Assembly (NCBI RefSeq): GCF_003334765.1
Contig: NZ_QOWT01000006.1
Length of the DNA: 64,000 bases
DNA from: Escherichia coli
Lineage (GTDB): Bacteria > Pseudomonadota > Gammaproteobacteria > Enterobacterales > Enterobacteriaceae
Reading direction: 5' to 3' (one strand)
The position numbers were made by a program, and so were the translations under genes. The first letter of the stretch is position 1. Every line of letters starts with the position of its first letter. Under the pieces are notes generated by a model, which saw only the letters and a list, made by a program, of their open reading frames with translations, did not search any database and had not been told where the DNA came from. Below, piece after piece: positions 40,745 through 44,941 of the stretch.

Positions 40745-41695
40745 ATGGCTATGTATCAGAACATGCTCGTTGTTATCGATCCTAACCAGGACGACCAACC
40801 AGCATTGCGGCGAGCTGTTTATTTACATCAACGGATTGGTGGCAAAATTAAAGCCTTTTTGCCGATCTATGACTTCTCATACGAAATGACCACCCTGCTC
40901 TCCCCGGACGAACGTACCGCTATGCGTCAGGGCGTCATCAGCCAGCGTACAGCCTGGATCCACGAGCAGGCAAAATATTATCTCAATGCTGGCGTTCCCA
41001 TTGAAATTAAAGTGGTCTGGCATAACCGTCCTTTCGAAGCCATCATTCAGGAAGTGATCAGCGGCGGACACGATTTGGTGCTAAAAATGGCGCACCAACA
41101 TGACCGTCTGGAAGCGGTGATTTTTACGCCAACGGACTGGCATCTGTTACGCAAATGCCCAAGCCCGGTGTGGATGGTGAAAGACCAGCCGTGGCCGGAA
41201 GGAGGCAAGGCGCTGGTGGCGGTGAATCTCGCCAGTGAAGAGCCGTATCATAATGCGCTCAATGAAAAACTGGTCAAAGAGACGATCGAACTGGCAGAAC
41301 AAGTCAACCATACCGAAGTTCATCTGGTTGGCGCTTATCCGGTAACGCCAATTAATATCGCGATTGAACTGCCGGAATTTGACCCGAGCGTTTATAACGA
41401 TGCCATTCGTGGGCAACATTTGCTGGCAATGAAAGCCCTGCGGCAGAAATTCGGCATTAATGAAAACATGACGCACGTAGAAAAAGGTCTGCCAGAAGAG
41501 GTGATTCCTGATTTGGCGGAGCACTTACAGGCGGGGATTGTGGTTCTGGGCACGGTAGGACGCACCGGTATTTCAGCAGCATTCCTCGGCAACACGGCGG
41601 AACAGGTGATTGATCATCTTCGCTGCGACCTGCTGGTCATTAAACCTGACCAGTATCAGACACCCGTTGAACTGGATGACGAAGAAGACGATTAA
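40745..41695 (+). CDS. uspE: tandem-domain universal stress protein E
   Basis: Track ORF trimmed to ATG at 40745 ([12 protein letters not shown]...), 316 aa. Confidence 0.9.
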
Positions 41696-41715
41696 CGACT
41701 CTTCAATAACTGACA

Positions 41716-41742
41716 AGGCCCGAGTTATCGGGCCTATTTTTT
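41716..41742. terminator. rho-independent terminator between uspE and ynaJ
   Basis: AGGCCCGA / TCGGGCCT hairpin followed by TTTTTT. Confidence 0.7.
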
Positions 41743-41744
41743 AC

Positions 41745-42002
41745 TTACTGCTCTTCGCCGCCAAGGAAATAAATTCCCAACGGGATTGCCAGCAACACAG
41801 TAAAGACCAGGCTATAAACAAAAATCATCGATGACTGAATCACATACATTGATGTCGTCCACTCAGACAGCGGAATATTGTACTGTTCTATAACGCCGCC
41901 GATGGTCGCGCGAGTCACAACCGACGCCGCAATAATGAAAACCGCCAACAAACCAAAGAGAAATTTCTTCCCTTTCGCTGACTTCAGTTTCGCCATAATC
42001 AT
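41745..42002 (-). CDS. ynaJ: DUF2534 small inner-membrane protein
   Basis: 85-aa ORF with two predicted transmembrane segments; synteny. Confidence 0.8.
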   Translation of the reverse strand: MIMAKLKSAKGKKFLFGLLAVFIIAASVVTRATIGGVIEQYNIPLSEWTTSMYVIQSSMIFVYSLVFTVLLAIPLGIYFLGGEEQ

Positions 42003-42245
42003 GATGTAATCCTTGTGCAGACAAATTTCTTGTTACCTAAACGTAACAATACCATGACATTTCACCGTTGTCTGCTCTGAAAACCTCACCTCTTAGCTGG
42101 ATTTACAATCAACGCATTGATTAGTTAGCTAATGTTGCTACTTCCTTCCCTGACTATTGATGATCTGAATGAATTGTCGCGGTAAAATAGCCCCGCCAGG
42201 GGTTTCCGGCATGACGACAATTATCTGGAGGAGCCTGATAAAACA

Positions 42246-43277
42246 ATGATCGCTGAACTGTTTACAAATAATGCGCTTAATCTGGTCATTATTTTCGGTA
42301 GCTGCGCAGCATTGATTCTGATGAGCTTTTGGTTTCGCCGTGGAAATCGTAAAAGAAAAGGATTTTTATTCCATGCGGTGCAATTTTTAATCTACACCAT
42401 AATTATCAGTGCTGTTGGTAGCATTATTAATTATGTTATAGAAAACTATAAACTCAAATTTATCACCCCAGGCGTTATCGATTTTATCTGTACGTCCCTG
42501 ATTGCGGTTATTCTGACGATTAAGCTATTTCTGCTGATTAATCAGTTTGAAAAACAGCAGATTAAAAAAGGTCGCGATATCACCAGTGCGCGGATTATGT
42601 CGCGTATCATCAAAATCACCATTATTGTGGTGCTTGTTCTGCTTTATGGCGAACATTTCGGCATGAGCCTTTCTGGCTTGCTGACCTTTGGTGGTATTGG
42701 TGGTCTGGCTGTCGGTATGGCCGGTAAAGATATTCTGAGTAACTTCTTTTCCGGGATTATGCTCTATTTCGACCGTCCTTTCAGTATTGGCGACTGGATC
42801 CGTTCACCGGACAGAAATATCGAAGGTACAGTAGCGGAAATTGGCTGGCGAATTACCAAAATTACGACCTTTGATAATCGTCCATTGTACGTACCGAACT
42901 CGCTGTTTTCGTCGATCAGCGTAGAAAACCCAGGACGAATGACCAACCGCCGCATTACCACGACCATTGGTTTACGTTATGAGGATGCGGCAAAAGTGGG
43001 CGTTATTGTCGAAGCTGTACGTGAGATGCTGAAAAATCACCCGGCCATCGACCAGCGACAAACCTTACTGGTTTATTTCAACCAGTTTGCTGACTCTTCA
43101 TTGAATATTATGGTTTATTGCTTTACCAAAACCACGGTATGGGCTGAATGGCTTGCTGCACAGCAAGACGTTTATTTGAAGATTATCGATATTGTACAGT
43201 CACACGGCGCGGACTTTGCCTTCCCCAGCCAGACGCTGTATATGGATAACATTACACCGCCGGAACAGGGTCGCTAA
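42246..43277 (+). CDS. ynaI: MscS-family low-conductance mechanosensitive channel
   Basis: 343-aa ORF; N-terminal transmembrane helices and MscS-like C-terminal domain. Confidence 0.88.
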
Positions 43278-43287
43278 ATCAGACATC

Positions 43288-43317
43288 ACTGGCGTTATGC
43301 ACAAGGGTAACGCCAGT
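43288..43317. terminator. hairpin between convergent ynaI and mppA (10-bp stem ACTGGCGTTA / TAACGCCAGT)
   Basis: Inverted repeat read directly; no strong U-tract. Confidence 0.4.
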
Positions 43318-43327
43318 TCCCATCACA

Positions 43328-44941
43328 TCAATGCTTCACAATATACATAGTCCGACTGTACGCCACATCTTCAGGATTATTAATGGGATAACCTTTCAGC
43401 CACGGCTTGATTAATCGTCCATTGGTATATTGATAAATTGGTGCAATCGGTGCTTGCTCCATGAGGATTTTTTCTGCCGCGTTGTAATCGGCATTACGCG
43501 CTTTAACGGTATTTTCCGTCGATGCCTGGGCCAGAACTTTGTCATATGCCGGATTGTTAAAGCGTGAAATATTTCCTGAATGCGTTGACGTTAATAATGT
43601 CAGGAAAGTGGAGGGTTCATTATAATCCCCCACCCACGAGGCGCGGATAACATCAAAATTGCCGGTGTTACGGCTATCGATATAGGTTTTCCATTCCTGA
43701 TTTTGCAATTTAACATCTACGCCAAGGTTCTTTTTCCACATCGATGCTACAGCAATCGCAATTTTTTGATGGTTTTCTGAAGTGTTATACAAAAGCGTCA
43801 GCTTCAGCGGTTTTTGCGGACCATAACCAGCTGCGCTCAACAAAGTTTTTGCCTGCGCATTCAGTTCTTCCTGACTCATTTGTTCAAACGGCGAAGGTTC
43901 CGGCGTAAATCCCGCGGTAACATCTGGTGTAAAATGCCACGCTGGCTTTTCGCCCGTCCCTAATACTTTTTCGGTCATCAGGCGGCGATCTATCGTCATA
44001 CTTAATGCCAGACGAACGCGCTGATCTGCCGTCGGCCCTTTTTGCGTGTTAAACGCATAATAATAGGTCCCGAGCTGCGGCGGCGTATAAACCTGCCCCG
44101 GAATATCCTTCAACAGCTTCTGATACATATTTTTCGGGAAGGATTCGGTGATATCAATATCCCCCGCGAGGTAACGCTTAGTGGCTGCGGATTCCTGATT
44201 AATTGGCAGGAAGGTCACTTTTTGCAGTACCGTTTTGGCGTTATCCCAATAATGGGTATTCGGTACCACGACCAGTTTTTCATTGACTACGCGCTCTTTA
44301 AGAACATAAGCGCCATTGCCGATCAGATTTCCGGGTTTCGTCCACTCTTTACCGCTTTCTACGTTGGCTTTTTGCACCGGGAAGAAGGCAAAGTTAGCGG
44401 TTAAATTCACAAACCACGGCAACGGTTTATCAAGCTGAATTTTCAAAGTATGGGCATCAACTGCGGTGACGCCAAGCTGGTCAGGCGTAGCTTTACCATC
44501 AATAATCGCCTGTGCGTTGTTGATTCCCGCCAGCGCGGCAAACCATGCAAATGGCGACAATGTTTTTGGGTCCACCAGACGTTGCCAGCTGTAGACAAAA
44601 TCTTGCGCCGTTACCGGTGTGCCATCCGCCCATTTTGCGTTATCGCGCAGGGTAAAAGTCCAGATACGGTTGTCATTACTTTTCCACTGAGTCGCAACGC
44701 CGGGGACAATCTCCCCTTTTTCGTTCTGATTCACCAGACCTTCAAACAGATCGCGAATGACCTGAATCTCTGGCAGGCCCACGGCTTTAGCGGGATCCAG
44801 CGACGCAGGCTCATCTTTAATGTGGCGCACCAGCTCCTGCTTCTCTGCCAGTACTGTGCCGCTCGGAACTTCTGCAGCATACGAAAGAGAAATGCTGCTG
44901 ACCAACAGCGCACAACACGTGACTGAAACAGAGTGCTTCAT
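43328..44941 (-). CDS. mppA: periplasmic murein tripeptide (L-Ala-gamma-D-Glu-mDAP) binding protein
   Basis: Track ORF trimmed to ATG at 44939-44941 (MKHSVSVTCCALLVSSISLSYA signal peptide), 537 aa; SBP family 5. Confidence 0.9.
   Translation of the reverse strand: MKHSVSVTCCALLVSSISLSYAAEVPSGTVLAEKQELVRHIKDEPASLDPAKAVGLPEIQVIRDLFEGLVNQNEKGEIVPGVATQWKSNDNRIWTFTLRDNAKWADGTPVTAQDFVYSWQRLVDPKTLSPFAWFAALAGINNAQAIIDGKATPDQLGVTAVDAHTLKIQLDKPLPWFVNLTANFAFFPVQKANVESGKEWTKPGNLIGNGAYVLKERVVNEKLVVVPNTHYWDNAKTVLQKVTFLPINQESAATKRYLAGDIDITESFPKNMYQKLLKDIPGQVYTPPQLGTYYYAFNTQKGPTADQRVRLALSMTIDRRLMTEKVLGTGEKPAWHFTPDVTAGFTPEPSPFEQMSQEELNAQAKTLLSAAGYGPQKPLKLTLLYNTSENHQKIAIAVASMWKKNLGVDVKLQNQEWKTYIDSRNTGNFDVIRASWVGDYNEPSTFLTLLTSTHSGNISRFNNPAYDKVLAQASTENTVKARNADYNAAEKILMEQAPIAPIYQYTNGRLIKPWLKGYPINNPEDVAYSRTMYIVKH

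Follow-up and report, generated by a model that had tools for sequence, protein, structure and literature searches.

A 12-codon open reading frame overlapping the ynaI start codon in Escherichia: a possible young by-product of the leader or, less probably, a constitutive coupling element

The window analysed in this study, a stretch of 64,000 nt of DNA, is derived from a non-K-12 Escherichia coli strain and contains the genes fnr, uspE, ynaJ (minus strand), ynaI (plus strand) and mppA (minus strand) in the order found on the E. coli chromosome. The position of the N-terminal methionine of YnaI, a mechanosensitive channel protein, is common to several genera in a cross-genus comparison. Directly upstream of ynaI lies a short open reading frame (uORF), whose stop codon overlaps the ynaI start codon. 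No CDS is annotated between ynaI and IS5 or ynaJ in NC_000913.3 (MG1655) or NZ_AP018808.1, and the uORF is likewise unannotated in MG1655 and the other RefSeq genomes checked. In K-12 strains, IS5 is inserted 121 nt 5' of the ynaI ATG, at a TTAG that corresponds to positions 42125-42128 of the window; the window contains no IS5 at this locus. The features of the region are as follows.

42157..42168, plus strand: motif TTGATGATCTGA, from its cross-genus alignment a possible weak -35 element (ATGATC, 17-nt spacing) or activator site
42183..42188, plus strand: TAAAAT, predicted -10 hexamer of the ynaI promoter, nearly invariant in 13 of 14 leaders, with diverging flanks
42197..42237, plus strand: predicted leader hairpin, folding energy -14.3 kcal/mol, a tentative prediction
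42198..42202, plus strand: AGGGG, Shine-Dalgarno (SD)-like element of the uORF, duplex with the 16S rRNA 3' end -6.0 kcal/mol
42211..42249, plus strand: uORF of 12 codons plus the TGA stop, from the sequence and the ORF list; the stop overlaps the ynaI ATG as ATGA
42227..42233, plus strand: GGAGGAG, SD of ynaI, duplex -9.3 kcal/mol, invariant in Escherichia
42243..42245, plus strand: ACA directly 5' of the ynaI AUG, reported MazF cleavage site (PMC5001579, Table 1)
42246..42305, plus strand: start of ynaI, a block of extreme nucleotide conservation, including synonymous sites, among seven Escherichia lineages, continuous with the SD and spacer
42246..43277, plus strand: ynaI, low-conductance mechanosensitive channel of the MscS family, 343 aa, from the RefSeq annotation of identical DNA

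The first-pass annotation had described an ORF of 12 codons that starts at the ATG at 42211, is preceded by AGGGG, encloses the ynaI SD and ends with a TGA on the ynaI ATG, and all of these elements were confirmed in the sequence. The uORF reads ATG (42211-42213), ACG, ACA, ATT, ATC, TGG, AGG, AGC, CTG, ATA, AAA, CAA and TGA (42247-42249). The ynaI ATG occupies 42246-42248, and the shared ATGA thus spans 42246-42249. AGGGG is present at 42198-42202, 8 nt before the uORF ATG, and this spacing (7-8 nt) is near-optimal. The ynaI SD, which falls within codons 6-8 of the uORF, is separated from its own start codon by a long spacer; GGAGGAG lies 12 nt and its GGAGG core 14 nt from the ATG. The uORF frame stays open in the 5' direction to a second ATG at 42169, which would give 26 codons. 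We rejected this longer version because its ATG has no SD (duplex +0.6 kcal/mol), is located in the predicted promoter spacer, upstream of both the -10 box and the predicted transcription start, and has been lost in E. albertii and the L083 lineage. ORFs on the minus strand (42221..42289, 42154..42246 and 42138..42212) were also discarded, as all of them fall upstream of the start site mapped for ynaJ (approximately position 42039); in addition, the ORF at 42221..42289 has no SD as judged by eye, and its stop codon is not conserved.

An alignment of 14 leader sequences from Escherichia, Citrobacter and Salmonella revealed that the box GTAAAATA, which contains TAAAAT, is nearly invariant. Escherichia, the Citrobacter freundii group and Salmonella also keep most of ATGATCTG, which lies approximately 20 nt 5' of this box. 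The sequence between the TAAAAT box and the ynaI SD is completely different from genus to genus. If TAAAAT serves as the -10 hexamer, transcription is predicted to start near G42195. The resulting leader of ~51 nt would include the 12-codon uORF and exclude the ATG at 42169. A scan of 41700-42400 for the sigma-70 consensus identified no promoter on either strand, and no start site in the Cappable-seq tables matched ynaI. The SMRT-Cappable-seq operon table obtained from K-12 laboratory cultures also contains no start site for b1330 (ynaI), whereas it does give start sites for mppA, insH-ynaJ, ynaJ, uspE and fnr. The missing b1330 start indicates that transcription of ynaI is weak in such cultures.

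To describe the variation of the uORF, ynaI loci were compared using one genome per species. Seven Escherichia lineages were included (E. coli, E. whittamii, E. albertii, the L083 lineage and three other Escherichia lineages). The uORF ATG at position -35, the open frame and the ATGA overlap are kept in all seven. In six of them the uORF SD retains a strength of -6.0 to -6.5 kcal/mol; in L083 it has been weakened to -3.7 kcal/mol. The predicted peptide varies at 3 of its 12 positions within the genus (T3S, I4T and K11T), and of six variable sites in the uORF, three represent non-synonymous changes. Codons 2-4 are variable at 5 of 12 sites, a rate like that of unconstrained spacer (0.46 variable sites per site). 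The SD and spacer (42226-42245) contain 1 variable site in 20, and TTTCCGGCATGAC (42203-42215) is almost invariant across Escherichia. The first 60 nt of ynaI contain 2 variable sites, whereas every other complete 60-nt bin of the gene contains 10-20, and one third-codon position varies in this first stretch versus 8-15 per 20 codons elsewhere. The first 19 nt of ynaI are identical also in most Citrobacter. Because the conservation runs 60 nt into ynaI, it is not explained by coding of the uORF. The conserved 3' two-thirds of the uORF is part of a broader constraint, at the nucleotide level, on the region where ribosomes bind for ynaI, and the variation among these lineages points to no detectable constraint on the uORF peptide.

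The first-pass annotation had proposed conservation of the uORF frame as a check. By this check the result is mixed: all seven Escherichia lineages have the frame, but it is absent from Salmonella, most Citrobacter and all of the more distant orthologous leaders. The ynaI loci of C. amalonaticus, Yersinia, Proteus, Providencia and Morganella and the others compared do not contain the uORF. Salmonella leaders have no ATG whatsoever, and their ynaI start reads ATGT. In most leaders of the C. freundii group, the overlapping frame has no start codon, and unrelated mini-ORFs (MSDDI* and MIFS*) are found instead. The TAAAAT box and a GGAG SD are conserved in these close genera lacking the uORF. In C. 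gillenii-type Citrobacter (L016 and L019), one of these mini-ORFs has lost its TAG and now runs into ATGA. An overlapping uORF thus arose independently in these species, which suggests that the arrangement appears readily. Outside Escherichia, an ATG-started overlapping uORF was found in 3 of the 24 ynaI leaders of the ATGA type (~12%). In Salmonella and C. amalonaticus S646, which lack a uORF, GGAG(G) is likewise placed 12 nt from the start, and the distant SD alone is apparently sufficient there.

The chance level of the arrangement was estimated using dinucleotide-preserving shuffles of the upstream sequence, with the ATGA start given. The overlap itself is not an independent feature because YnaI begins with Met-Ile (ATG ATC), an N-terminus common to the YnaI proteins of Escherichia and most Citrobacter. 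An ATG-started ORF ending on ATGA occurred in 23-25% of the free shuffles and in 13-35% of those in which the SD and spacer were held fixed, and one of at least 12 codons occurred in 8-12% of shuffles. Therefore, the bare ORF, without regard to its SD, is not beyond chance. The combination of such an ORF with an SD of -6.0 kcal/mol or stronger at -18 to -4 was obtained in 0.6-1.8% of shuffled leaders. Although this makes an ORF with a decent ribosome-binding site uncommon for any one leader, a few dozen are expected in a genome of ~4,300 genes.

In the predicted fold of the leader, the side containing the uORF SD and AUG (CAGG, UUUCCGG and AUGA) pairs with the side containing the ynaI SD (UUAU, CUGGAGG and CCUG), such that UUUCCGG (42203-42209) is paired with the SD segment CUGGAGG and the uORF AUG with UUAU. 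The uORF SD and AUG would thus be mostly base-paired. According to the prediction, the uORF AUG is unpaired with a probability of at most 0.1 and the ynaI SD with one of 0-0.2, and the predicted cost of opening is 9.5-11.8 kcal/mol for the ynaI site versus 5.5-8.9 kcal/mol for the uORF site. However, we do not regard the hairpin as a conserved structure. Its stability is not significant when compared with shuffles (z = -1.37; 20 of 200 shuffles fold as well), no covariation was detected (5 of the 15 pairs vary, and every change breaks its pair), and the leaders of other genera form no equivalent stable fold. A permissive Rfam scan of 41500-43500 yielded no match at E <= 1, and no terminator was detected on the plus strand between the uORF and ynaI (42211-42246). 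On the minus strand, a terminator-like hairpin followed by a T-run is present at 42211..42194.

A rough thermodynamic comparison, which combines the duplex and opening energies with a spacing penalty as in the Salis RBS model, predicts that initiation at the uORF exceeds direct initiation at ynaI several-fold. Edwards et al. (PMC3508906) found more ynaI mRNA than mscS mRNA in a K-12 derivative, in which chromosomally encoded YnaI was undetectable. Abundant mRNA with undetectable protein fits a poor ynaI ribosome-binding region. ynaI is also among the mRNAs cleaved by MazF, and the cleaved ACA is 3 nt from the start (PMC5001579). Its expression is responsive to YdeO (PMC4222967); it is co-expressed with GadY but was stated not to be a GadY target, and the papers found report no sRNA partner of ynaI. 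As to translation of the uORF, the accessible part of the ribosome-profiling small-ORF supplement of Stringer et al. (2021) contains no match to ynaI, the peptide or the K-12 coordinates, and neither ynaI nor the uORF was matched in the tables from acid-stress ribosome profiling or in the small-gene tables of O157:H7 Sakai. With ynaI so little transcribed in K-12 cultures, the lack of a match carries little weight.

Two readings of the uORF carry most of the weight: it may be an inert by-product of the ynaI leader, or it may serve constitutive coupling. We prefer the former, to which we assign an approximately even chance: the uORF would be a young, Escherichia-restricted by-product that is untranslated or is translated with negligible effect. 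According to this reading, the overlap would be forced by the conserved Met-Ile start (ATG ATC) of YnaI, the frame through the conserved SD and spacer (TGG AGG AGC CTG ATA AAA CAA) would be free of stops by chance, and an in-frame ATG would have appeared by chance 35 nt upstream of the ynaI start. The peptide would be functionless and would sense nothing, and initiation on ynaI would be set by its own strong, distant GGAGGAG, the element conserved across genera. Any ribosome starting at 42211 would have to cross this SD and terminate on the ynaI AUG, and the sole consequence to be expected would be constitutive coupling. The by-product reading is consistent with the presence of an ATG-started ORF on ATGA in 13-35% of shuffled leaders, the independent origin of a similar uORF in C. 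gillenii-type Citrobacter and the absence of the uORF outside Escherichia, where the close genera nevertheless keep the TAAAAT box and GGAG SD. It also accounts for codons 2-4 varying like unconstrained intergenic DNA, with half of the six changes in the uORF as a whole being non-synonymous, and for an invariant portion that coincides with the SD and spacer and continues into ynaI. The uORF has no RefSeq annotation and, as far as the accessible tables extend, no match in three ribosome-profiling small-ORF studies. However, that negative evidence is weak, with no ynaI start detected in K-12 laboratory cultures, and the ribosome-binding site of the uORF is respectable (an AUG with an SD of -6.0 kcal/mol at 7-8 nt, a combination found in 0.6-1.8% of shuffles). 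Moreover, all seven Escherichia lineages retain the ATG, frame and stop and six retain the SD, the segment TTTCCGGCATGAC hardly varies, and the ynaI site looks so poor (12-14 nt, costly opening) that ribosomes delivered by the uORF could matter. Such delivery is what constitutive positive coupling, a possible but clearly less favoured reading, would entail, the peptide itself being irrelevant. A 30S subunit would bind at AGGGG-N8-AUG as soon as the 5' end of the nascent mRNA is exposed, and the translating ribosome would melt the hairpin that sequesters the ynaI SD, terminate at the UGA within AUGA and reinitiate on the ynaI AUG, so that the uORF would compensate for a badly spaced SD. The ATGA overlap, the position of the uORF near the 5' end and inside the predicted transcript, its near-optimally spaced SD as compared with 12-14 nt at ynaI, the lower opening cost of its site and the rarity of an ORF with SD in shuffles argue for coupling, as does its retention in all of the Escherichia lineages examined. 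Both termination-reinitiation at 4-nt overlaps and ribosome delivery by short uORFs are described mechanisms (PMC6728339; PMC12548453), and more ynaI than mscS mRNA with undetectable YnaI would point to a limitation at the translation step (PMC3508906). Against coupling, Salmonella and C. amalonaticus S646 share the distant SD and have no uORF, the uORF is absent from every other genus, and the similar ORF of Citrobacter has a separate, chance origin. Its SD is degraded in L083, the part of the uORF outside the SD shows neutral-looking variation, and the hairpin has neither comparative support nor significantly greater stability than shuffles. The small-ORF tables searched give no experimental sign of its translation, although the low transcription of ynaI limits their power. 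More specifically, most ribosomes in Escherichia might reach the ynaI AUG via the uORF, with termination-reinitiation at AUGA setting the YnaI output; this model, in which AGGGG-AUG would be the real entry point because the ynaI SD is 12-14 nt away and base-paired, can be put forward only tentatively. The sequence anatomy, the chance rates and the conservation pattern are shown directly by the data above; both the absence of a selected function of the uORF and the transcription start near 42195 are what we infer from them.

The other explanations appear considerably less probable. An element acting at the RNA or DNA level over approximately 42195-42305 could explain the conservation and leave the uORF incidental; it might be the hairpin that sequesters the SD, a site at which an sRNA or a protein contacts the ribosome-binding region, or an antisense transcript. 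The conserved sequence does take in the SD and spacer, both arms of the hairpin and, synonymous sites included, the initial 60 nt of ynaI, but not the loop (codons 2-4), and the minus strand contains the terminator-like hairpin and T-run at 42211..42194. However, each change in the stem breaks a pair instead of covarying, and neither an Rfam match, nor a promoter-like site on either strand, nor a reported sRNA partner was found, making such an element unlikely. Repression by the uORF, which we regard as slightly less likely still, would have ribosomes from 42211 cover the ynaI SD and block 30S loading, with reinitiation too inefficient to raise YnaI above a low level. The ynaI SD is indeed located inside codons 6-8, ynaI mRNA is detectable but accompanied by very little YnaI protein and channel activity (PMC3508906), and occlusion of a ribosome-binding site by ribosomes translating a uORF is reported as a mechanism (PMC13285730). 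Nevertheless, ATGA overlaps generally couple positively (PMC6728339), the uORF is not conserved beyond Escherichia, and the long spacing and base-paired SD already explain low YnaI without any uORF. The first-pass annotation had also suggested leader-peptide control, that is, a sensing peptide that would switch ynaI by attenuation or stalling in the manner of trpL, tnaC, secM, mgtL or toiL. The position in the ynaI leader is suitable, and Edwards et al. (PMC3508906) mention 'potential attenuation-based regulation' for MscS homologues. However, the sensing form of the proposal is not supported and is highly improbable: 3 of the 12 residues vary within Escherichia, other genera do not have the ORF, runs of regulatory codons are missing from the uORF, the plus strand carries no intrinsic terminator between the uORF and ynaI, and no leader or attenuator family of Rfam was matched. 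Furthermore, with the uORF ending on the ynaI AUG, alternative terminator and antiterminator structures would have no space to form.

Gene pairs that overlap by ATGA and are coupled by termination-reinitiation are known (Huber et al. 2019, PMC6728339; reviewed in PMC12548453), and the review describes hairpin opening as the second of two coupling models. The ynaI arrangement has the identical 4-nt overlap and a downstream SD located inside the upstream ORF, and the expected mechanism would be similar, with the terminating ribosome reinitiating and translation unfolding the local structure. Unlike these pairs, in which a conserved protein gene lies upstream, ynaI is preceded by a 12-codon, unannotated and genus-restricted ORF known from sequence alone. 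A role of short uORFs in bringing ribosomes to the gene behind them has also been proposed (Shell et al. 2015, cited in PMC12548453). The uORF of ynaI resembles ribosome-delivering uORFs in being a short leader ORF with an irrelevant peptide and a stop at or next to a poorly accessible downstream start. Known examples of such uORFs are uof-fur of E. coli and tap-repA of plasmid R1, in which the dependence of the downstream gene has been shown by mutation and the uORF start is targeted by a regulatory RNA (RyhB and CopA, respectively). In contrast to these two systems, the ynaI uORF has been recognized from its sequence only, has no known regulator and is conserved in one genus. It shares with trpL, tnaC, secM, mgtL and toiL-topAI (toiL: PMC12121999) a location as a short ORF in the 5' leader of a regulated gene. 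Sensing leaders, however, have conserved peptides or regulatory codons and stalling tied to a terminator, to Rho or to SD-unmasking structures, all of which are lacking in the ynaI uORF.

If real, the ynaI uORF joins a known kind of coupled uORF; otherwise it is a chance ORF, and it is ordinary either way. A functional uORF would be another short leader ORF that feeds ribosomes to a poorly initiating gene, which is unsurprising in concept, but it would provide a handle on the small amounts of YnaI produced despite the mRNA level and would be useful for work on the MscS paralogues. Entry of ribosomes via the uORF would turn its start into a point of control specific to the genus, on which an sRNA or the leader structure, for instance, might act and which MazF could bypass by cutting at the ACA that adjoins the ynaI AUG, and the coexistence of abundant ynaI mRNA with scarce protein would in part be explained. 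If the uORF is inert, which is about equally likely, the locus would illustrate that chance readily produces ATGA-overlapping uORFs where a gene begins with ATG-A and its SD lies in an open upstream frame, and the uORF would merit no more study. Within E. coli, the 318-nt segment comprising the ynaJ-ynaI spacer and the ynaI start was matched in 5,423 of the 5,426 complete genomes, and at an identity of at least 99% in 5,361 of those matched.

The first 60 nt of ynaI (42246-42305) are near-invariant among the seven Escherichia lineages compared, with only 2 variable sites, against 10-20 in each of the other full bins covering the rest of the gene. Variation at third-codon positions is likewise restricted to 1 site in these 60 nt versus 8-15 in the other full bins. 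The conserved block reaches upstream of the start codon, back to about 42223, and the first 19 nt of ynaI, ATGATCGCTGAACTGTTTA, are identical in most Citrobacter. At the start of uspE, the drop in synonymous change is milder than that at the ynaI start. Conservation at the ynaI start is much stronger than the usual reduction in synonymous change at gene starts. The near-invariance of 42246-42305 suggests an unrecognised constraint on the ynaI ribosome-binding region, for example, an antisense transcript, a structure, or a site bound by an sRNA or protein.

Features of the ynaI leader and upstream region
42211..42194, minus strand: terminator-like hairpin, TGCCGGAAACCCCTGGCG then GGGCTATTTT, opposite the start of the 12-codon upstream ORF (uORF, 42211-42249)
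42157-42168: TTGATGATCTGA, conserved in Escherichia, the Citrobacter freundii group and Salmonella
TAAAAT at 42183-42188: contained in GTAAAATA, which is conserved in the same three groups
Locus positions about 1440-1470 in Citrobacter, ~30-60 nt before the ynaI ATG: mini-ORFs, ATG TCA GAT GAT ATT TAG and ATG ATA TTT AGC TAA

Regarding the antisense option, the TGCCGGAAACCCCTGGCG/GGGCTATTTT hairpin could terminate an antisense transcript running across the ynaI ribosome-binding region; a sigma-70 consensus scan of 41700-42400 detected no antisense promoter for such a transcript. The ACA at 42243-42245, which directly adjoins the ynaI AUG, is the cleavage site reported for ynaI by a MazF-regulon study, at a distance of 3 nt (PMC5001579). 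A MazF cut at 42243-42245 would yield a nearly leaderless ynaI mRNA that lacks both the uORF and the Shine-Dalgarno sequence.

The Citrobacter ynaI leaders (loci L009-L019 and L042) contain mini-ORFs that are unrelated to the uORF. In the Citrobacter gillenii-type species (L016 and L019), the TAG of the first mini-ORF is replaced by TTG, and the frame is thereby extended to a 15-codon uORF that likewise terminates on the ynaI ATGA. The overlapping arrangement seen in Escherichia seems to have arisen independently in these species.

TTGATGATCTGA and GTAAAATA are separated by a constant 14 nt (the TTGATG hexamer and TAAAAT lie 20 nt apart), and the remaining ynaI upstream spacer has diverged among Escherichia, the C. 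freundii group and Salmonella. The downstream motif is probably the -10 box of ynaI, accompanied upstream by either a weak -35 element or a site for an activator (EvgA/YdeO are regulators to which ynaI responds). The conserved pair (42157-42168 and 42183-42188) was not detected by the consensus sigma-70 scan.

The 81-nt stretch 42185-42265 differs somewhere from the window in 1,211 of 5,418 genomes. Four variant E. coli strains were compared with the window: their differences within this stretch are located at 42190-42192, in the discriminator predicted to separate the -10 box from the start site, and the uORF is unchanged in each of them. CFT073 and CFSAN061771 carry a C-to-T change at 42191.

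K-12 strains have IS5 (insH4) inserted at TTAG (42125-42128), a site that precedes the ynaI ATG by 121 nt and the conserved promoter-region motif by ~30 nt. Most E. coli genomes, like the window, lack this insertion; therefore, published K-12 data on ynaI expression may not be representative of the native upstream region. In the E. coli laboratory strain TOP10 (NZ_CP080620.1, locus L001, 1536-2696), the ynaI upstream sequence is fused to aqpZ/ybjD exactly where IS5 inserts (query position 123). The 390-nt gap of this locus carries no IS5 annotation, and the junction presumably represents an IS5-mediated rearrangement.
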